Under the pieces are notes generated by a model, which made no database searches, was not told the DNA's origin, and was given only the letters and a program-made list of their open reading frames with translations. From a virus (taxonomy: Duplodnaviria; Caudoviricetes): 64,000 bases of DNA. The position numbers were made by a program, and so were the translations under genes. Positions 1-50,200 of this stretch are shown here, piece by piece. Numbering within the stretch: the first letter of the stretch is position 1; every line of letters starts with the position of its first letter. The stretch is taken from the IMG/VR virus record IMGVR_UViG_3300048502_000015, positions 1-64,000 of that record; one strand, given 5' to 3'.

Positions 1-24
1 GCAGTGGTATCAACGCAGAGTACT
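1..24 (+). other. library adapter (SMART/template-switch, low-input amplification adapter), not genomic
   Basis: GCAGTGGTATCAACGCAGAGTACT matches the AAGCAGTGGTATCAACGCAGAGTAC(T) oligo. Confidence 0.93.
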
Positions 25-26
25 CT

Positions 27-3000
27 ATTATGCCCAAATAGGGGAGCGCTCATATCAAAGGACGGACAGGATGTCAAGTCCCATGTATCCATTGGCCTAT
101 CATACTGGCTGGATGATGTCAAGCCACGCTTGTCCCAGTCATCTGCTATAGTATGTGTATGCGTGTTGTCCTTGCTACATTGCTTACTCTGCTTGCCGAG
201 TATATCGGACTCGCTCTTGTCCCAAGACATGTTGCCCATCATGACTTGATCGGAGTGTTGATCATAGTCATTGCCCTTTGGATGATTCTGATTATCAGTT
301 TGATTCAAACTTTGATGATTCAAACCAGAACCAAATAAATCCCAATCAAGGGACAATTTGTTTCGGCGCTTCATGAATTGATCTACCCTCGTCTTTCCCG
401 CAGGCGACTCTCGTAGCTCATCTATTTCGTTGCCGATCTGGGAAGAATGCGTGTACTCCTTTGTCGGAGACATTCCTACAGGATTGTTCTCTGGGATATG
501 CCAAGTCTCTCCTAATTGATTATCCGCATTCATTCCATGAATCGGGCAAGTTAGTTTCTCCCCGATAATGCAAGAGCAGCCATGAAGTTCTGGATGGCCT
601 TTCGGATCATCAAACTCTCTGCTGTCGTCATGATCGGCCAAGAATTGTTCTAGCTCCTTGACAATTGGTTGTCCTTGTGCATGAGGAGGGTTCTTACTGG
701 GGTGGTCTGAGAGGATAATCGAAGATTTATGCTCTTGTTGCCATTGGTCTGAGAGGAGTTTGGACTTCTTTGAAGGCCAAGCTGATGTCATAGGGGTACC
801 ATAGGGTACATAAGGATTAGTTTGATTCGTCCCTCGCATCACATCAATCTGATGAGTAACCGGAGGATCAGGTACAAGCCTAATCCGACTTGGATCAATG
901 TCCCCCGGATGATAAAATGACCCGCCCAAATCGCCTAAATAATCTTCACCATAATCATCGCCCCAAGGATCGTGATGAATTGGTAACCCCGTTGTATCAA
1001 TTTGCCATACATCGTTCCGCTCGGGATGATATAGATATGGATCTGTTGAGTATTGTGGATGCTTTGGTGTCATAAATACCGCTGGCTGGGGATCAACATC
1101 GGGATCACCATTTGCCCTTAAACCATTCTGCTGAATACTATTCCGAACTGTCTTCGGTGCTTGATGATACATTGTAGTCGGGGCATTTTGAATTAGCTCC
1201 CCATCTGGTCCCCAGATTCCCATCGAATAATGTTCGATATCTGATACCTTATCGGGCTTAATGTTCCATATCTGGTACTTTAAACCATTCTGTCCATTCT
1301 GGAGTCTATTGGCCGTTCTTCGATATGCTGGCCGATTTTCTGGAAGCCGGAAGTCTGTCTTGCAGTTAGGACAATAATGAGTCGGCTGTTCATATTGGCC
1401 ATTCGTCACAGGCGTCCATCCTGCTCTGCCGCTATTGAACAATCCCTGCCCGCAATGAGGACATTGAGCCATTCCTTCATAATGCCACCAATCTTGGCTG
1501 CCGCCTTCTCTTCTAGGATATCCCCATCCTTCCCCGCCCAAGTCTGATGGAGTTGGCCATTGCTTCTGAATATATCCATTAGCATCGGCGTATTGTTTTA
1601 GCCGCTCAATTGTATTAGTATCAGGCGGGCGATTGCGCTGGCCAAGGATACCCATGACCGCAGGCAACCGTTCCACTTGTCGCACTCGGGACGCGGGCCA
1701 AACCTCAGGCGCATTGGCTGTATCAAAGAATGCCGCTCTCGGAATTCCATGAGGATCGTGCAAAGCCATATATCTTGTGCCCTGCAACGATGTAGGGAAT
1801 TTTCCATCTGTGCTCTGCCAACAGTTGTGCATCATTTGTCCAACTCGATTAATGTCAAGTTTGTTAGGATGATGCTGAACCGTCCAGCCATCATCGAATT
1901 GATGCACGACCTGAGATTGCGGCTGATACTTTTGGGAGAACGATTTGTTCAGGTCCTCCCATTCTCTGATCTCTTGGGGCAATGTCATTGTCGCCGTTTT
2001 GCCTTGATGGATTGGCCCGAGATCCCATCCCTCTCCATAATCCTCCATTGCTTGCGGCAAATACTTATCCCGATGAAGCATTTGATTCATTGGCTCGTCC
2101 CATCCGACCGGATAGTAATTCCGGCATTCAGGGCAATGGATATATCCCTTGAGGATATTCGCTGGCTCCAAAGGAGAATGGCAATTTGGGCATTGGATTG
2201 AAGCCAATCCGTTATCTGTCCGATCCTGTGCTATAATGGTCTTATGAGAAAAAATATTTGGGAGATCCTCGATGCATTCCTTGTCTTTGTTCTGTTTGTC
2301 AACGCGGCTATTTTGATCTTTGGTCATCCCGATCTCAGCGAAGTCAAAGGCGTAGTCGGCCTCCTTTGCATCTTGATGGTCGGCGTCATTGCTAAGGGCA
2401 ATGCTTAGATGACTATCCTTATGATTATCATTTTCTTCTGGCTCATTATGGCCGGGACTTCCTTTGGCCTTTCGATTATCTTTGCTCTCTGCGACCCATT
2501 CAAACGCCCATGGGTTCTCGACGCCAATCTCGTGTTTATGGGCTGCGGCATTGTGTACTTGATCTTGGCCCTGATCTTTACTATCATCAACGCCATCGTC
2601 TAAATGACCCCAATCCTTGCTCGCATCATTCTCGGCATAATGCTGCTTATCAGCATTGTAATGCTGGCCATTTATGCTCCCATTGTTTTGCTGTGCTTTG
2701 GGGTTATTGCGGTGCTGGGCTTCTTCATGGTGGCTTTGGTCTATTTGATTGAGCACGCTTGGCCCTACTGACTCAAGCTTCCAAAGCGGTTCTGCCTTTG
2801 ATTCATCGTCCTTAATATGGACTTGCCAGCCGGGATAATCATGATCAGCCTCGTCCCGGATATGCTCCTTGAAATCTTTAGTCGGATTGTCTAGCTCGAT
2901 ATGCATCTCATGATGCTCATGATCTAGTTTGATCTTTCCGCCGTTTGATTCGACATCTTCTTTGACTGATGCCGTCCATTCTTGAGGAACTGTCAAAGGC

Positions 3001-4004
3001 GCATTCTCATTAACTTGGTTGGCCCAATCTTCGATATGCATTGGGCTAGGCTCAGAGTTAGGAAGAATGGATCCCTCGTCCATCCATCCTTGAACCTGCT
3101 CAGGACTGTACTTTCTTCTTCGATCTCCGATATCGAAATGATGCTCGCCGCCTCCGAATCCTCGATATGTCATCAAAGCAGGATTGCCCAAGTTCTGGCC
3201 AAGCGGATTGCGATCATGGCGATACTTGAGCGTCTGCAACAAATACATTTGGCGAGGGGACCAGACAGCATATTCCTGTCCAGGCAACAATGCAGCAATT
3301 CGTTGATTAGATGAATTCGTGCCAATTAGACTTCTTGGCTTAGTAGGCAACTTAGCTGGCTCGCCATATGAATATGGCCATTCCCATTCTTCTCCTGTCG
3401 GATATGATCTCCCCGGTTGCCAAGGCTCTTCTTCAATTGGAATCCAGCTTCTAAAGCCCGATTGAATCTGAGGCAAGCTCCACATTAGATTCTCGGCGTG
3501 TCCATAAGGATCGGCTTGAACAGGAGCAGACGGAAGCAACGAACCAACTTCCAATCCAGCGTTCGCAATCATCGCTCGCTGATCTTGATCTAGGAAACGT
3601 TCTGGCTTTGCATCAGGGCCTCTAAATGGATTGAACTGCCAAACCGATCCATCTGAATTGATGTGGAAATTGGATGATGGAATAGCATCTGTTTCGTAGT
3701 TGCGTTCGACTCGTGCTTGCTGTTTCTTCTGGTCATGATTTGGCCGCATATCTTTGGTCGGCCAAGTCCAAACCGATCCATCCTTGAGGATAAATCCTTT
3801 GCCTTCTTGTCCCGGATTCCATTCAAGCTTATGCTGAGGCAAACCTGCCAACTTGACATCTTGCCAATCCGAAAAAACGTCATCTTCTGTCAACTTCGTA
3901 TCGTTTTGATACGGAATGTGTTGAACATTAGCTGTCAAGCTATTAGGTACAACATTTGGTAGCACATTTGTATCATCGGGACTTAGCTTATCTGTTGTAT
4001 TCAT
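27..4004 (-). CDS. giant multidomain (polyvalent) protein, 3'-truncated by contig end, >=1326 aa; CxxC Zn ribbons, PcfJ-like domain, Tpt1/KptA-like ADP-ribosyltransferase fold
   Basis: Hand translation from ATG at 4004 (MNTTDKLSPDD) has no stop to the window edge; motifs VVHQFDDGWTV..GQMMHNCW..YMALHDPHGIP..ILGQRNRPP and TMYHQAP..SIQQNGLRA..DVWQIDTTGL..GDIDPSRIRLV. Confidence 0.85.
144..152 (+). promoter_or_regulatory. extended -10 promoter TGCTATAGT for leaderless gene at 159
   Basis: TGn-TATAnT followed 6 nt later by ATG, same geometry as many minus-strand promoters in the window. Confidence 0.6.
159..338 (+). CDS. small 2-TM membrane protein nested antisense in the giant ORF
   Basis: MRVVLATLLTLLAEYIGLALV..LIGVLIIVIALWMILIISLI; leaderless promoter. 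Confidence 0.6.
   Translation: MRVVLATLLTLLAEYIGLALVPRHVAHHDLIGVLIIVIALWMILIISLIQTLMIQTRTK
2227..2237 (+). promoter_or_regulatory. extended -10 promoter TGTGCTATAAT, leaderless start at 2244
   Basis: consensus TGn-TATAAT, 6-nt spacer to ATG. Confidence 0.75.
2244..2408 (+). CDS. small 2-TM membrane protein (54 aa) nested antisense
   Basis: MRKNIWEILDAFLVFVLFVNAAILIFGHPDLSEVKGVVGLLCILMVGVIAKGNA*. Confidence 0.7.
   Translation: MRKNIWEILDAFLVFVLFVNAAILIFGHPDLSEVKGVVGLLCILMVGVIAKGNA
2409..2603 (+). CDS. small 2-TM membrane protein (64 aa) nested antisense
   Basis: abuts previous stop (TAGATG); two hydrophobic helices. Confidence 0.7.
   Translation: MTILMIIIFFWLIMAGTSFGLSIIFALCDPFKRPWVLDANLVFMGCGIVYLILALIFTIINAIV
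2604..2771 (+). CDS. small 2-TM membrane protein (55 aa) nested antisense
   Basis: abuts previous stop (TAAATG); MTPILARIILGIMLLISIVMLAIYAPIVLLCFGVIAVLGFFMVALVYLIEHAWPY*. Confidence 0.7.
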   Translation: MTPILARIILGIMLLISIVMLAIYAPIVLLCFGVIAVLGFFMVALVYLIEHAWPY

Positions 4005-4059
4005 CTCTTCTATTATTGTCCCGATACTAAAGCCAAGTTTGGCCTAAGTACCTACAACG

Positions 4060-4842
4060 CTAATAGCCTATAGCAAAAATATCTACTTGGGCGGTGTACG
4101 GAGAAGTAGATGGATGAGCAAACGTTACGTCGGTATTTAGTCCGTTAGGAGTGGCATAAAAGGTATAGGGTTGATCCGGGGCATTTGGTCCTTGAAGAAA
4201 CCATCCGCCGATCCAAGCATATAAACATGCGGTAGGAAATGATGGTCCAAAGCTAGCTGCGGTAAATCCACCTGTAGCTGCCCCCAATATTATCAGGGTA
4301 GAATTATGCTTTAGCATGTAGTTATGCGAACCACCGAAGATTTGAAGAAATGGAAGAGATGATGAAAGCTGAGTTGCTGTTATTGTCCCGTTAGCTATCT
4401 GGGCAGCCGTTACGGTGTTGTTGGCTATCTGGCTTGCTGTAATCGTGTTGTTAGCAATTTTGGCTGCGGTTACTGATGTGTTAGCTAACTGCGTAGTTCC
4501 AACCGCTCCTGCTGCTAGCTGTGTTGAGCCAATAGCATTGGCTGCTACATTCTCTACTCCTGCCCCATAGACGGCTTCAAAGGCTTCTGTGTAGGGAGTA
4601 ATAGATGGCGACCCTCCAGAGACAGCCATGTTGTAGCTACCCTCGGCTATCCACCCGCCTACAAGCCCATTAGCGTCTGTTGTAATTGAGCCTAGTGGAG
4701 ATCCACCGGATTCAGTAGAGTATACGTTGACTGATGCTCCACCAACTCGGTTGGTGATAACGACAGTGGCTCCCACAACAGGCTGTACGTCAGAAGAGAC
4801 AACCTTCTGAACTACATACGGGATATATACTCGGGACGCCAA
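4060..4842 (-). CDS. virion structural/tail-fibre-like protein
   Basis: beta-sandwich-like N-terminus plus 10-aa repeats (IANNTITASQ). Confidence 0.6.
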   Translation of the reverse strand: MASRVYIPYVVQKVVSSDVQPVVGATVVITNRVGGASVNVYSTESGGSPLGSITTDANGLVGGWIAEGSYNMAVSGGSPSITPYTEAFEAVYGAGVENVAANAIGSTQLAAGAVGTTQLANTSVTAAKIANNTITASQIANNTVTAAQIANGTITATQLSSSLPFLQIFGGSHNYMLKHNSTLIILGAATGGFTAASFGPSFPTACLYAWIGGWFLQGPNAPDQPYTFYATPNGLNTDVTFAHPSTSPYTAQVDIFAIGY

Positions 4843-4843
4843 G

Positions 4844-5026
4844 TTAACTCACCGGGCCGAAATCTCGATAGGCAATTTTAGTTGCTTTCTTCCAAGCAGC
4901 TAAACGAGTAGACTTCTCGCCCTGTTCGATAGCTGCACCCGTAGTAGGATATGAACTATCTCGGACTTCCCAGAACCAACGATCAGGGGAGTGTTCCCAA
5001 ATGCTAATGTCAACGGTCCAATTCAT
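4844..5026 (-). CDS. hypothetical protein
   Basis: ORF in tightly packed minus-strand run. Confidence 0.55.
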   Translation of the reverse strand: MNWTVDISIWEHSPDRWFWEVRDSSYPTTGAAIEQGEKSTRLAAWKKATKIAYRDFGPVS

Positions 5027-5051
5027 CTCAACGATTATCCGTCGTTAGGAT

Positions 5052-5459
5052 CTACTTTGATGATTTGGCTGTACTGTTCTCAATTGCCTTGCAGTCGAGC
5101 GCGCTCAAACGATAAGGGTGGAGAATAAGGACGCCGTGGCTCTTGTCAAGAGTATTCACGATAACCTTGATGTAGAGATTGGCAAATGCTTTGTCGGCTG
5201 CTGAAAGCTGATGCTGTTGATTAAGCGCATTCTCTAGGGCTATTCCTCTATTCTTAGCTTGCAAAACGGTTCTGGTTTCAAATAGCTGATCGTAAACGCG
5301 ATTCTGGTTGATCGCGTTGCACCATGTAGCCACATTCTTTACCCGGTTATTTAGTTGGCTCTTAGTCAAATCGTTGACTTGATTTATGGAGTAGATAACC
5401 GCAACGACAAGAATCGCGTATGCCAAGCCGTTTTTGTATTTCTTGATAAGATCAATCAT
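5052..5459 (-). CDS. N-terminally anchored membrane protein
   Basis: single TM helix followed by helical region. Confidence 0.65.
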   Translation of the reverse strand: MIDLIKKYKNGLAYAILVVAVIYSINQVNDLTKSQLNNRVKNVATWCNAINQNRVYDQLFETRTVLQAKNRGIALENALNQQHQLSAADKAFANLYIKVIVNTLDKSHGVLILHPYRLSALDCKAIENSTAKSSK

Positions 5460-5567
5460 TATTTGGGTAACAGCATAACGAAGATTTCAACACAAACAAC
5501 GAAAGTGATGTAAGGAATGAAAAGTTTGTGTTGGTTTAGTATCCAGGTCATTGTGTGTATTTTCACT

Positions 5568-5783
5568 CTATTCATCTTCCTTATGTTCCTTGTCTTTTTT
5601 GCCGTAGCCTGTTGGACTAAAGAATGCAGGTAGTCCCATCATTGAGGCAAACAGAATGAGCAACTCTAGGTTGACTGTTGTGGCCAATCTGGTTTCGTAG
5701 TAAACTCCAAGAAGACCGGCCACAAACAGGATATTCGTCTTGTTGAATATCTTGTTTAGGATTTTTTGTAGTGATTGATTCAT
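5568..5783 (-). CDS. 2-TM membrane protein, holin-like
   Basis: two TM helices, charged C-terminal tail. Confidence 0.5.
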   Translation of the reverse strand: MNQSLQKILNKIFNKTNILFVAGLLGVYYETRLATTVNLELLILFASMMGLPAFFSPTGYGKKDKEHKEDE

Positions 5784-5890
5784 TCATATTTGCTTACTCA
5801 CGCAGTAACGGAGCGAATAGCTCATGTATTACATAAAAGTAAAGCCACCTAAAAAAGGTGGCCCTAAATAATGCATTATTTTTGGAGGGA

Positions 5891-6232
5891 TTAGGGGGCT
5901 TTTGGTGGGTACATATCGAAGCCAATAATCGGCTCAACAGTGAACCCAAGGTTGGGATAACGAGCGTGCCAAATCTTAGTGCGCTGATCGTTGACCGTCT
6001 TAGCCTTACGAATTACCTCGGCCATATCCCATGGGTTATCGGGTTCATTGTATCCAAACTGATATCCCTCTGGGTCGTCATCTTCCCAGATACAGGGAAT
6101 GCCCGTAACCTTTCCTGTTTCCTCGTTAACCTCAACTGCAAGAGCTAAGCCAAGCGGATGGAAGAACTGACGATTTACCTCCTGGAGATATCCGTCATTC
6201 AGAAACTTGTTTAGATCCATTTCTTTAGTCAT
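5891..6232 (-). CDS. phage hypothetical, paralog of 28804..29313
   Basis: shared motif DGYLQEVNRxFFHPxGLALxV. Confidence 0.75.
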   Translation of the reverse strand: MTKEMDLNKFLNDGYLQEVNRQFFHPLGLALAVEVNEETGKVTGIPCIWEDDDPEGYQFGYNEPDNPWDMAEVIRKAKTVNDQRTKIWHARYPNLGFTVEPIIGFDMYPPKAP

Positions 6233-6391
6233 AGCTGTATTAATCCATCACCTTATATCCAATGATCTCGTTCTTAGCCTTGGTTAGCTCGTACTGGAGA
6301 TATTCGTTAGCCTGATAAAGCTGTTGAATCTCGTGACGAGCATTGTCCAGATCGGATTTCAAACGGCGGATCTCTTCTTCCTGAATCTGAG

Positions 6392-6778
6392 TCATCTTGA
6401 CGCCTTAAATAGATTTTCAAGGATATTAGGAGCCGGATGAAGACGGCGGGCCTCATAAGGTCCTACCGGATGCTCTATTTTATCCCAGTACTCTCCCTCC
6501 AAACGAACGTAATATTCATCTGGCGATTCGACAATCTCTCCACGTTCTTCATTGAGTTGGCCCGGATTGATTACAACCTTGTCGCCAACCTTAAACTTTG
6601 GCTTAGGAGGAGCAAGAGATAGATCGCGTTCAGGAATCCACCAAGTATTATGATCCCTAGAATCTTCCCAGTTGATCTGGTAATGATACTGGACCTTTTG
6701 AACGGTCCCGGTAGAAGGTCCTCGATGTATGGTTGCTCCTCGGATTACCCTGTCTCCCGCTTTGAATTTGGCGCTCAT
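6392..6778 (-). CDS. hypothetical with two SH3/KOW-like repeats
   Basis: KFKAGDRV and KFKVGDKV repeats. Confidence 0.7.
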   Translation of the reverse strand: MSAKFKAGDRVIRGATIHRGPSTGTVQKVQYHYQINWEDSRDHNTWWIPERDLSLAPPKPKFKVGDKVVINPGQLNEERGEIVESPDEYYVRLEGEYWDKIEHPVGPYEARRLHPAPNILENLFKASR

Positions 6779-7080
6779 AGTTCTTCAATTACCTCGTCTA
6801 GAAAGGACAGGATCTCTTCGTGGGAATGCAGGTCGTTAAAGGTCGAAATACTGGCGATCTTGGAATAAAGATATTTCTCAAAATCGGTGAGAATTAAATC
6901 TCTATTATCACAAACTTTAGCAATGGCTCCCATAAGGCACCAACCAACGGCCTCCGACCCAAAGATTAGAGCACGATTGCCATCCTTATCTACTGCACAA
7001 AAGTCCCGAGTCCAATGATCTGGATCGGCAATCAGTTCTCGAACCTGAACGGCTGTCTTCTTTAGTTGTTCGTTATTCAT
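6775..7080 (-). CDS. hypothetical protein
   Basis: start revised to MNNEQ; WCLMGA motif; overlaps neighbours. Confidence 0.65.
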   Translation of the reverse strand: MNNEQLKKTAVQVRELIADPDHWTRDFCAVDKDGNRALIFGSEAVGWCLMGAIAKVCDNRDLILTDFEKYLYSKIASISTFNDLHSHEEILSFLDEVIEEL

Positions 7081-7303
7081 GAGATATAAATTGGATCGTG
7101 ATCGTATCGCCGTTGATCTTGGTCTTGGCTTGAATTCCGCGTGCCCTCTTTGTGCGATGAACAAGAGTACGGAACGAACGAGGATCGCAAGTGAAATCAA
7201 CGCCCCGTTCTAACTGCCAAACCTCACCATTAGTCCATATGTCCCAGTTGTAGATATTGGGCCGTCCTCGATGCTTAGGAAACTCTGTTAGAGTATGAGC
7301 CAT
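7073..7303 (-). CDS. small basic protein, possibly DNA-binding
   Basis: RGRP..YNW motif. Confidence 0.65.
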   Translation of the reverse strand: MAHTLTEFPKHRGRPNIYNWDIWTNGEVWQLERGVDFTCDPRSFRTLVHRTKRARGIQAKTKINGDTITIQFISHE

Positions 7304-7509
7304 TACACATCCTCCTCGTGATTTTCGGGAACATTGACAATCTTAGACTTGCGGAAGACTGTTAGCTGAAATTCATCTCCTGGTTCAAGCCCCAACTCAA
7401 GAGTAGCATTGGCAATTGCTGGACCAAGTGCTCGCCATTTCTCAAGTGTGGTCGGAACCGTTAGAATCCCGCCTCCGATAATCTCTCTATCTTGTGGTGT
7501 ATCAGTCAT
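7303..7509 (-). CDS. hypothetical protein
   Basis: coupled ORF. Confidence 0.6.
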   Translation of the reverse strand: MTDTPQDREIIGGGILTVPTTLEKWRALGPAIANATLELGLEPGDEFQLTVFRKSKIVNVPENHEEDV

Positions 7510-7960
7510 GCGTTACCTCTATTCCGTGGTGATTTAAAGTCTGTTTAATTTGCTCGGGCGCAGAACTATGCCAATCGATATCGTTCTCTTTCCCTGTTAC
7601 TTTGTAGGGTCGATATTCAGCCCGTTCTTTATATGGCCCATATGTATCTATCATATCACACATTCTTTTGCTTCCCGCTGAGTTCCAAGAATGCACGACA
7701 ATTTGGCCAGATGGCCAAGCAGCGTGTTCCACTATCCAGCGCACGAAATCTAATCCTGAGCCGTCTGACGAGTTCCCAGCTAGGTATATGGCCTCGCTCG
7801 GACGCCATCCTTCTGGAGCTACTGCTCCGAGATCGTGGTCGAGAGACATATAATCGATTTCGTTCTCTTGTGCGTACTCGATAGCCTCCTCAACCGTCTT
7901 AGCCCAATGCCAAGAATTGTTAGGCGGTTGCCGAATATCATCCAACCATAATTTCTTCAT
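7502..7960 (-). CDS. cyclic-phosphate-processing receiver-domain protein
   Basis: LWLDDIR..SLDHDLG..VHSWN motifs. Confidence 0.8.
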   Translation of the reverse strand: MKKLWLDDIRQPPNNSWHWAKTVEEAIEYAQENEIDYMSLDHDLGAVAPEGWRPSEAIYLAGNSSDGSGLDFVRWIVEHAAWPSGQIVVHSWNSAGSKRMCDMIDTYGPYKERAEYRPYKVTGKENDIDWHSSAPEQIKQTLNHHGIEVTHD

Positions 7961-8205
7961 GTCAGCGTATACCTCTTGATCTTCTTATCGGCTTCGGCTT
8001 CCAAAGCCCGTTTATCCTTGTACTCCTGGACTCGGATAGGAGCGAGTTCCTCTGCTCCTTCCATTGTATCAACAAATTCATCGGCCACCCTTCCTATATA
8101 ACCCACTCTTTTTCGATGTTCAATTTTCAAGTGATAACCCCTTTGATTATCACTTGTGATTATTGGTCTTATGGTGACTGGGTAGTAATCGTTAATTCGA
8201 CTCAT
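7957..8205 (-). CDS. hypothetical protein
   Basis: ATGA-coupled. Confidence 0.6.
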   Translation of the reverse strand: MSRINDYYPVTIRPIITSDNQRGYHLKIEHRKRVGYIGRVADEFVDTMEGAEELAPIRVQEYKDKRALEAEADKKIKRYTLT

Positions 8206-8456
8206 GTTACCAAATACCTAATAATCTTTTCATCTAGTTCAGCCAAGTCCTTGAGCCTTTTCTTGTCGTCCTTGATAGCCAAGTCTACAAATACTTTGGC
8301 CTCGGCTATTGAAACTGCATGACCAGTTGCTAATCCACTCGTGTTAAAGCTATCGCCGTAATGACAACGGACATCGACATTCCAGTAAATAGTAGAAGGC
8401 CGACTAGATGGATCAATAGTTACGAGATACTCAACCTCCCTCTTTAATTTTCTCAT
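8202..8456 (-). CDS. hypothetical protein
   Basis: ATGA-coupled. Confidence 0.6.
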   Translation of the reverse strand: MRKLKREVEYLVTIDPSSRPSTIYWNVDVRCHYGDSFNTSGLATGHAVSIAEAKVFVDLAIKDDKKRLKDLAELDEKIIRYLVT

Positions 8457-8652
8457 AAGCCAAATAGAATGCGTCGAAGTTTGATCCAGCCGGTATCCGG
8501 CAGGAGCCGATAGTTCTTCTCAATACCTTCTTGAGAATACCACATCTCATAGTTATCGGGATAACGAATTAGGCAATTCTTCCCGTATAGCTCGAATGCG
8601 AATCACGTTTCCGTGATGCTCAAGGTCTTCCCAGCGTTGATCTTTCTTAAAC

Positions 8653-8994
8653 TCAGTCATCTTCTTCCTCTTTGATATAGAATCCGATTGCTTCATCAAA
8701 TCGGCCTCGCTTCTGAACCTTTCGAAACTTAGCTATTTCTAGATGCCACAACGTCATGTCCTTTAAACCTAAATCTCGTTTTAGGAGAGCCAATAGAACC
8801 TCATATACATCGGCAGCCTCTTCGATAGAGGGATTCTCCATGTACTCTACGGCCTCTTCGATAAGCTTCTTTCGGAGTAACTTAACTACCTCATCCTCAT
8901 CGGAGATAGTTTCGCCAAAAGCGAGGTATCTCTCGTTAGGACCAAAGACCTTATCTCGTACCAGTTTAACTAAAATTGGATCATGTTTACTCAT
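8653..8994 (-). CDS. MazG-like nucleotide pyrophosphohydrolase
   Basis: KLVRDK..KLIEEAVE..EEAADVYEV..KRGRF. Confidence 0.8.
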   Translation of the reverse strand: MSKHDPILVKLVRDKVFGPNERYLAFGETISDEDEVVKLLRKKLIEEAVEYMENPSIEEAADVYEVLLALLKRDLGLKDMTLWHLEIAKFRKVQKRGRFDEAIGFYIKEEEDD

Positions 8995-14398: not shown

Positions 14399-14625
14399 GA
14401 TTAGGCTATCAAACACTGTAAGTGTGATTTGACCGACGATAATTTTCGCCCTGACGAAGACGCTGGCGAGCACTAAGGTACTCTTCAATAACATCTTCGC
14501 CGGGATCAAGAGGGTTCATCGCAATCTGATTTGCGGCCCGAGTCATGGTTACAATGTCCTGCTTAAGTTGAGTCTCTTTTGTGGTCATAGCTATATTGTA
14601 TCAGATTGCTAGCCAAATGTGGGAA

Positions 14626-50092: not shown

Positions 50093-50176
50093 CTAATGAA
50101 CTCCTGCTGCTACAAGAACGGCTACAACGTAGCCTATCAAGATAAACAACAAAAGCGCAATCAATTTATAGTTCAT
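50093..50176 (-). CDS. 27-aa membrane peptide (leaderless)
   Basis: TGTGATATAAT-6nt-ATG; MNYKLIALLLFILIGYVVAVLVAAGVH. Confidence 0.55.
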   Translation of the reverse strand: MNYKLIALLLFILIGYVVAVLVAAGVH

Positions 50177-50200
50177 AACTACATTATATCACAGTTTAAG

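Follow-up and report, generated by a model that had tools for sequence, protein, structure and literature searches.

The first 64,000 nucleotides (nt) of the phage record IMGVR_UViG_3300048502_000015 (Duplodnaviria; Caudoviricetes), referred to here as the window, open inside a giant gene that is read on the minus strand. Close to the start of the window, at positions 144 to 338, the plus strand carries a promoter-like motif and a short open reading frame (ORF) for a hydrophobic peptide of 59 amino acids (aa). This locus raises the question of whether a stretch of DNA that specifies a spacer in a giant protein also holds, backward, a small membrane-protein gene with its own start signals, or whether the backward ORF is a by-product of the giant gene. 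Judged from its sequence features, the ORF at 159-338 would be a real leaderless small membrane-protein gene with a probability of about 0.5. It is given this weight because of a start module that the phage uses elsewhere, a synonymous-site signal, the order of residues in the peptide, the precedent of nested genes in related phages, and a consensus module in the same frame at a distance of 1.9 kb. Coordinates refer to the window unless stated otherwise, and positions in the giant gene are counted in its own codons.

The motif TGCTATAGT is followed by ATG codons at 153 and 159, the second of which lies 6 nt past it (tcatc TGCTATAGT atgtgt ATG). The frame then stays open until a TAA at 336-338, which gives a peptide of 59 aa from the second ATG or 61 aa from the first. 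Two hydrophobic stretches of the 59-aa peptide are parted by PRHVAHHD. The ORF is antisense to the giant gene in phase 0: it is in register, so that each of its codons faces one codon of the giant gene. Read on the minus strand, this DNA specifies a spacer that has a Cys/His 'CPxHGM' domain of the giant protein on one side and a 'YHxAPTxxR' domain on the other. A first cassette, with its ATG at 2244, is also in phase 0, i.e., in the same antisense frame, with 1.9 kb between the two. The motif, the 6-nt gap, the ATG at 159, the length of 59 aa, the shared antisense frame, and the distance of about 1.9 kb had all been described in a first-pass annotation of this DNA and were found as described. 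The hydrophilic linker in which that annotation had placed the ORF was recovered as well: both modules are in hydrophilic spacers, and codons 1224-1284 form the second most hydrophilic 60-codon stretch of the giant gene. In the called-protein search the ORF was not reported by any gene caller, and no match to the peptide was found in Pfam or PHROGs.

The case for a gene begins with the way in which this phage starts its other genes. The sequences TGNTATAAT and TGNTATACT are enriched genome-wide, with 13 and 25 sites compared to about 7 and 6 expected. At 18 of these 38 sites an ATG follows 6 to 7 nt downstream, compared to about 1.3 expected, and most of the 18 head real genes. In its general form, the module TG[AC]TATA[AC]T followed after 6 to 7 nt by an ATG is found at at least 17 true gene starts, including those of primase-, helicase-, ligase-, and kinase-like genes. 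It is phage-wide and lacks both a -35 element and a Shine-Dalgarno sequence; examples in the window are at 14603, 17942, 18798, 27226, 45137, 51317, 52957, 57639, and 62032 (minus strand). The module is also kept at the orthologous gene of a relative (L002, 6600-6616). The enrichment of the motif and its spacing to the ATG of real genes indicate that the phage uses extended -10 promoters with leaderless mRNAs; such mRNAs may thus be common in its host.

The arrangement of promoter-like motif, 6-nt gap, and ATG pointed out in the first-pass annotation matches this leaderless start architecture, apart from the fifth base of the hexamer, which is a G. At site 144, TGC (144-146) precedes TATAGT, with TG one base upstream of the -10 hexamer as in the module. 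The spacing of 6 nt from the -10 hexamer to the ATG is that of 12 verified gene starts, and the spacer ATGTGT resembles the ATGTCT and ATGTAT of two verified starts (type ATGTNT). The module was scored with a 23-column position weight matrix (PWM) trained without both candidates, an overfitted 39-column PWM having been dropped. Site 144 scored 13.6 bits and ranked 15 in the genome, while true sites scored 12.7 to 27.0 bits when left out one at a time, with a median of about 25. Synonymous shuffles that kept the giant protein fixed gave an expectation of 0.010 antisense modules with an ORF of at least 50 aa per giant gene; two were seen, and none of the 3000 shuffles produced two modules in the giant gene. 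For the 98 genes of at least 150 aa taken together, the expected number of modules with an ORF of at least 50 aa is 0.013 to 0.06. Furthermore, both sites (144 and 2229) use the rare Ile codon ATA in the sense gene (ATA 14/110).

The module was also seen in other settings. In the tRNA region (50096-50191, minus strand), a consensus module, TGATATAAT-6-ATG, scored 24.8 bits and is followed by a 27-aa mini-ORF with a single transmembrane segment (MNYKLIALLLFILIGYVVAVLVAAGVH). Beyond the window, at genome positions 132706-133428, the second-best module (29.1 bits) opens a 64-aa plus-strand ORF over a 240-aa minus-strand ORF; both of these score positive for coding, so that either one of them is a mis-called shadow ORF or the pair is a further case of overlap.

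A second line of evidence comes from synonymous codon choice. Given the amino acids, the codon usage of the antisense ORF is gene-like (z +0.58), while in the sense direction it is atypical (z -1.84). The antisense-minus-sense difference reached p 0.002-0.006 against redrawn codons, a value that should be read as about 0.05, because real genes are over-dispersed under that null: in a calibration on 513 tiles of ordinary genes, 5% reached the same value. The same test gave p 0.08-0.87 for seven other long antisense ORFs of the giant gene and p 0.011, 0.27, and 0.038 for the proven nested genes of relatives described below. Among 48 tiles of the giant gene, the one covering the 59-aa ORF ranked first and one of the first cassette second. 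Antisense codon usage taken by itself was not significant (p 0.087). The polar residues of the peptide are sorted to its loop and ends beyond what shuffles of residue order produce (p 0.029). About ten tests were run, several of them null, so the positive p-values need discounting. Antisense-like synonymous codon usage nearly as strong as in the two candidate regions, but without a promoter module, was noted in three further tiles of the giant gene, at codons 649-708 (window about 1880-2060), 1829-1888, and 2006-2065 (the latter two beyond the window).

Further support comes from related phages, in which nested genes of this design are real. The DNA of ten distant giant-gene homologues was compared (L002, L003, L004, L006, L007, L008 = L010, and L014-L017). 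In the giant genes of L006, L008 = L010, and L016, an in-register antisense ORF of 41 to 45 aa encodes a hydrophobic peptide of the form M(x)INPNA...IVN. The nested ORFs of L006, L008, and L016 stand behind TGCTACA[AC]T-6-ATG, the own consensus of those phages. Between L006 and L008, the sequence directly beside the nested ORF does not align, and within it 25 of 41 residues are identical as antisense peptide compared to 14 of 41 in the sense frame. Nucleotide differences fall 13/10/23 by antisense codon position, and 13 changes are synonymous in the antisense frame compared to 2 in the sense frame. On the evidence of these aligned sequences, the pattern proves that the nested 'M(x)INPNA...IVN' gene is selected in the antisense frame. 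Together with the modules of the relatives themselves, it means that backward membrane mini-genes with leaderless promoters exist in this family of giant genes.

The 'MINPNA' genes share with the window ORF an in-register antisense position, a hydrophobic product, an extended -10 motif of their own 6 nt before the ATG, and a location in a hydrophilic, non-conserved spacer of a giant gene. Moreover, the mini-gene of L008 comes after the same 'CPxHGM...IPExxPVG' domain that precedes the window spacer. They differ in being conserved in three phages, in their antisense selection pattern, and in having free-standing copies, whereas the window peptide has no similarity to them, is longer, has an off-consensus -10 motif, and is without relatives. 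The giant genes of L014 and L017 carry one antisense module each, of another kind. That of L017 lies antisense in a gene at 1334-5518 (1394 aa), where TGCTACTCT-6-ATG opens an in-register 140-aa ORF for a non-membrane product, with a shuffle expectation of 0.2.

Against a gene at 159-338 stands the explanation that the giant gene is the sole coding sequence and the ORF its shadow, a reading that is short of even odds but carries appreciable weight. The antisense frame would be open since TTA, CTA, and TCA are infrequent, the membrane-like look would come from a spacer of NAN codons read backward as NTN, and the motif and ATG would be a coincidence helped by Ile-Ala and His codons. Much of what was found favors it, to which the calibration of the codon test and the number of tests should be added. 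The giant gene has in-register antisense ORFs, counted from an ATG, of 221, 150, 110, 92, 92, 75, 64, and 61 codons, then shorter ones; 8 of at least 59 aa were seen compared to 9.07 +/- 1.76 in synonymous shuffles with the protein kept, and an ORF of at least 59 aa arose at this very spacer in 19% of shuffles. In the genetic code the complement of an NAN codon is an NTN codon, which makes the hydropathies of sense and antisense products complementary; here they are anticorrelated (giant gene, r -0.80; other genes, r -0.73). When the spacer codons were redrawn, the antisense hydropathy was 1.35 +/- 0.16 compared to the actual 1.46 (p 0.096, not significant), and two transmembrane-like segments appeared in 67% of redraws. 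A hydrophobic antisense ORF of 92 aa at codons 2328-2420 is without a promoter module. A synonymous-resampling test of the transmembrane segments (p 0.013) was discounted as biased, since control windows skewed low too. Because shuffles and redraws reproduce both the open frame and the two-transmembrane look, neither carries weight: ORF length, mean hydrophobicity, and two transmembrane-like segments follow from the sense protein and by themselves are no evidence. The two-transmembrane protein proposed in the first-pass annotation is thus present as two hydrophobic segments, but its look is largely dictated by the hydrophilic sense spacer. The start module, too, has a genuine weak point. The hexamer TATAGT departs from the TA[TC]A[AC]T of all verified starts, a fifth-base G being found at 0 of 17 training sites, in none of the verified promoters of this phage, and in none of the listed modules of relatives. 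The TGNTATAGT class is at background in the genome (7 observed compared to 6.2 expected), and about 1.4 positions per genome reach 13.6 bits by chance. No antisense module was found in the scan of the giant genes of L002, L003, L004, L007, and L015. Neither 5.8 billion called proteins nor viral or metagenome contigs yielded a homologue of the 59-aa peptide, the phage has no paralogue of it, and the plus strand after the ORF has no terminator-like site. Finally, the 33 nt upstream of the motifs at 144 and 2229 are 48% identical compared to 27% expected (p 0.006), so that the two sites may share ancestry and not be independent; both motifs may stem from one duplicated boundary of spacer and domain.

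A shadow ORF accounts for the frame, the length, and most of the hydrophobicity, but it does not explain the start module (p about 0.02-0.06 genome-wide), the synonymous signal (about 0.05), and the order of residues (about 0.03). It is also opposed by the small shuffle expectation for such modules, two of which are present, by the rare Ile codon at both sites, by codon-difference and residue-order tests that both came out positive, where seven control ORFs did not, and by the real nested genes of the same design in homologous giant genes. The argument of the first-pass annotation that a second occurrence makes chance less likely agrees with the shuffles, but its description of the two modules as independent is put in doubt by the similar upstream sequences. 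It is also conceivable, although improbable, that the promoter is real and the peptide has no selected function, the transcript being an antisense RNA that interferes with or times the giant gene, or simply tolerated noise. The motif statistics favor a functional promoter, transcription could, with no terminator after the ORF, continue in opposition to the giant gene, and the peptide is without homologues, all of which would suit such an RNA. However, an RNA needs neither an exact spacing of 6 nt to an ATG nor 59 open codons, the synonymous-site and residue-order signals point to the protein level, and the nested ORFs of relatives are selected as proteins. For an in-register antisense frame in general, these results show that neither the length of an ORF nor its transmembrane look has any value as evidence, while the genome's own start module and internally controlled synonymous-site tests are usable.

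If the ORF is a leaderless gene, RNA polymerase would read the extended -10 motif TGCTATAGT and begin the transcript some 7 nt past it, with the A of the ATG at 159. The transcript would then be leaderless, its 5'-terminal AUG would be translated directly, and the product would be a hairpin of two membrane helices. Since in register a hydrophobic NTN codon faces a hydrophilic NAN codon, this DNA could also encode the soluble spacer of the giant protein. Verified module sites head genes of replication and nucleotide metabolism, so the ORF might be expressed ahead of the giant protein, which is probably delivered with the virion. As for a role at the membrane, the analogy of other small phage membrane proteins offers no more than a guess: host take-over or superinfection exclusion.

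The relation of the ORF to the first cassette bears on how general such an arrangement might be. The sense spacers of the two cassettes align weakly (p 0.006). Paralogy of the cassettes at the peptide level was considered and rejected, as the resemblance among the four antisense peptides of both does not exceed what their composition would give (p 0.14-0.77). In the first cassette, three ORFs are joined by the stop-start junctions TAGATG (2406-2411) and TAAATG (2601-2606), which the sense frame reads as His-Leu; the arrangement resembles translational coupling. A wider proposal, which we consider rather unlikely, is that giant polyvalent genes in this phage group host backward small membrane-protein genes and that the window gene has two independent cassettes (159-338 and 2244-2771). 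A gene of NTN codons that avoids TTA, CTA, and TCA would leave a stop-free, hydrophilic other strand and could fit inside a giant ORF with its own leaderless promoter. Alternatively, two adjoining ORFs might fuse across a backward gene. Either way, the 'spacer' of the giant protein would be the reverse complement of a membrane-protein gene. The early genes and the repeated strategy of which the first-pass annotation had spoken are at most possibilities; it had also proposed to extend past the adapter and look for more nested cassettes, and the rest of the 2848-codon gene is without a further module.

The features of the locus and of the nested genes in relatives are collected in Table 1.

Table 1. 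Positions of the candidate gene, of the surrounding features of the window, and of nested and free-standing small genes in related phages (the latter in coordinates of the respective locus).
Feature	Position	Strand	Basis or remark
Extended -10 promoter-like motif TGCTATAGT	144..152	+	Phage consensus TG[AC]TATA[AC]T but G as fifth hexamer base
Candidate leaderless ORF, 59 aa and TAA; alternative ATG at 153	159..338	+	6-nt spacing, ATGTGT spacer
Giant-gene sense codons 1224-1284, hydrophilic N/Q/D/H-rich spacer	153..335	-	Homologues match flanking domains only
Window part of the 2848-codon polyvalent-type giant ORF; start at 4004	3..4004	-	Crosses contig junction
Library adapter (SMART-type oligo), non-phage; reverse complement ends contig	1..23		End comparison
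689-nt exact repeat of the far contig end (genome 159712-160400)	24..712		Terminal overlap
First cassette: consensus module TGCTATAAT-6-ATG and first 54-aa ORF	2229..2408	+	Same antisense frame, for comparison
'M(x)INPNA...IVN' nested genes	L006:11946-12092; L008:11808-11948; L016 in gene 4676-8959	antisense	
'M(x)INPNA...IVN' small gene, free-standing	L009, L011, L012 at 6001-6123		

The giant gene itself is real, with a coding log-likelihood ratio of 0.43 per codon and homologues of its domains. The contig of 160,424 nt has a 23-nt adapter at its start and the reverse complement of the adapter at its end, and the 689 nt inside each are identical; the assembly therefore closes to a circle of 159,688 nt. 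Site 144-338 is in this terminal overlap, since the same 689 nt are repeated at the far end. The minus-strand ORF at the start of the window carries on there as a single ORF, and an independent Logan assembly (locus L005) spans the contig junction at 100% identity. The genome is that of a large phage encoding rIIA, a portal, a terminase, a CCA-adding enzyme, and NAMPT.

Relatives of the giant gene were sought at several levels. A word-based search of the 5.8 billion proteins found homologues at the domain level only, at 36-40% identity, and when 1.84 billion representatives were scanned in full with HMMER, all 89 matches were to the domains flanking the spacer. The giant-gene segment had no relatives among viral contigs, where a scan with the domain alignment returned one locus. 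The 'YHxAPTxxR...GIGLPDRVIGS' domain is the one most widely common to homologues of the giant protein, in which it occurs in up to three copies (residues about 941-1045, 1374-1520, and 2695-2844). The L005 protein P0095, a mate in the 90%-identity cluster, is encoded by identical DNA and offers no variation usable for selection tests. In tblastn comparisons of the 59-aa peptide with all fetched loci and of the 'MINPNA' family with the genome, nothing fell below E 0.06 save one spurious hit. That hit, the sole metagenome match (L013), was rejected as it is to a non-coding frame of a response-regulator gene with 70% G+C.

If the gene is real, the two strands of one stretch of phage DNA would code for different products at different times: a soluble spacer in a giant protein of the injected-effector type, and a membrane protein. 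Counts of small proteins in large phages would then be too low, and some of the "linkers" of polyvalent proteins would be shaped by a gene on the opposite strand. Antisense overlapping genes (OLGs) are disputed as a class, and gene callers are built to discard them.

OLGs have been described in E. coli O157:H7 (PMC9927249) and Pseudomonas aeruginosa (PMC8850804) and have been reviewed (PMC7457138); the founding paper on polyvalent proteins makes no mention of antisense or overlapping genes. Like the window ORF, OLGs are wholly embedded opposite an annotated gene and have their own start signals, and they share its main confounder, chance in-register ORFs. The OLG cases rest on RNA-seq and ribosome profiling, the window ORF on its sequence features. 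As a candidate gene, the window ORF differs further in being leaderless, in belonging to a phage, and in its place between two domains of a polyvalent protein, in a spacer. In Shigella flexneri, the set1B/set1A (ShET1) operon lies on the opposite strand inside pic/she. By description, these genes resemble the window ORF in being nested antisense in a large gene that stays open; they differ in being bacterial, in encoding secreted toxin subunits, and in their ordinary leadered translation. Compared to chance shadow ORFs, the window ORF shares the frame, the length distribution, and the hydrophobic character, but it differs in having the genome's own promoter-plus-start module and gene-like synonymous codon usage, which such ORFs are not expected to have.

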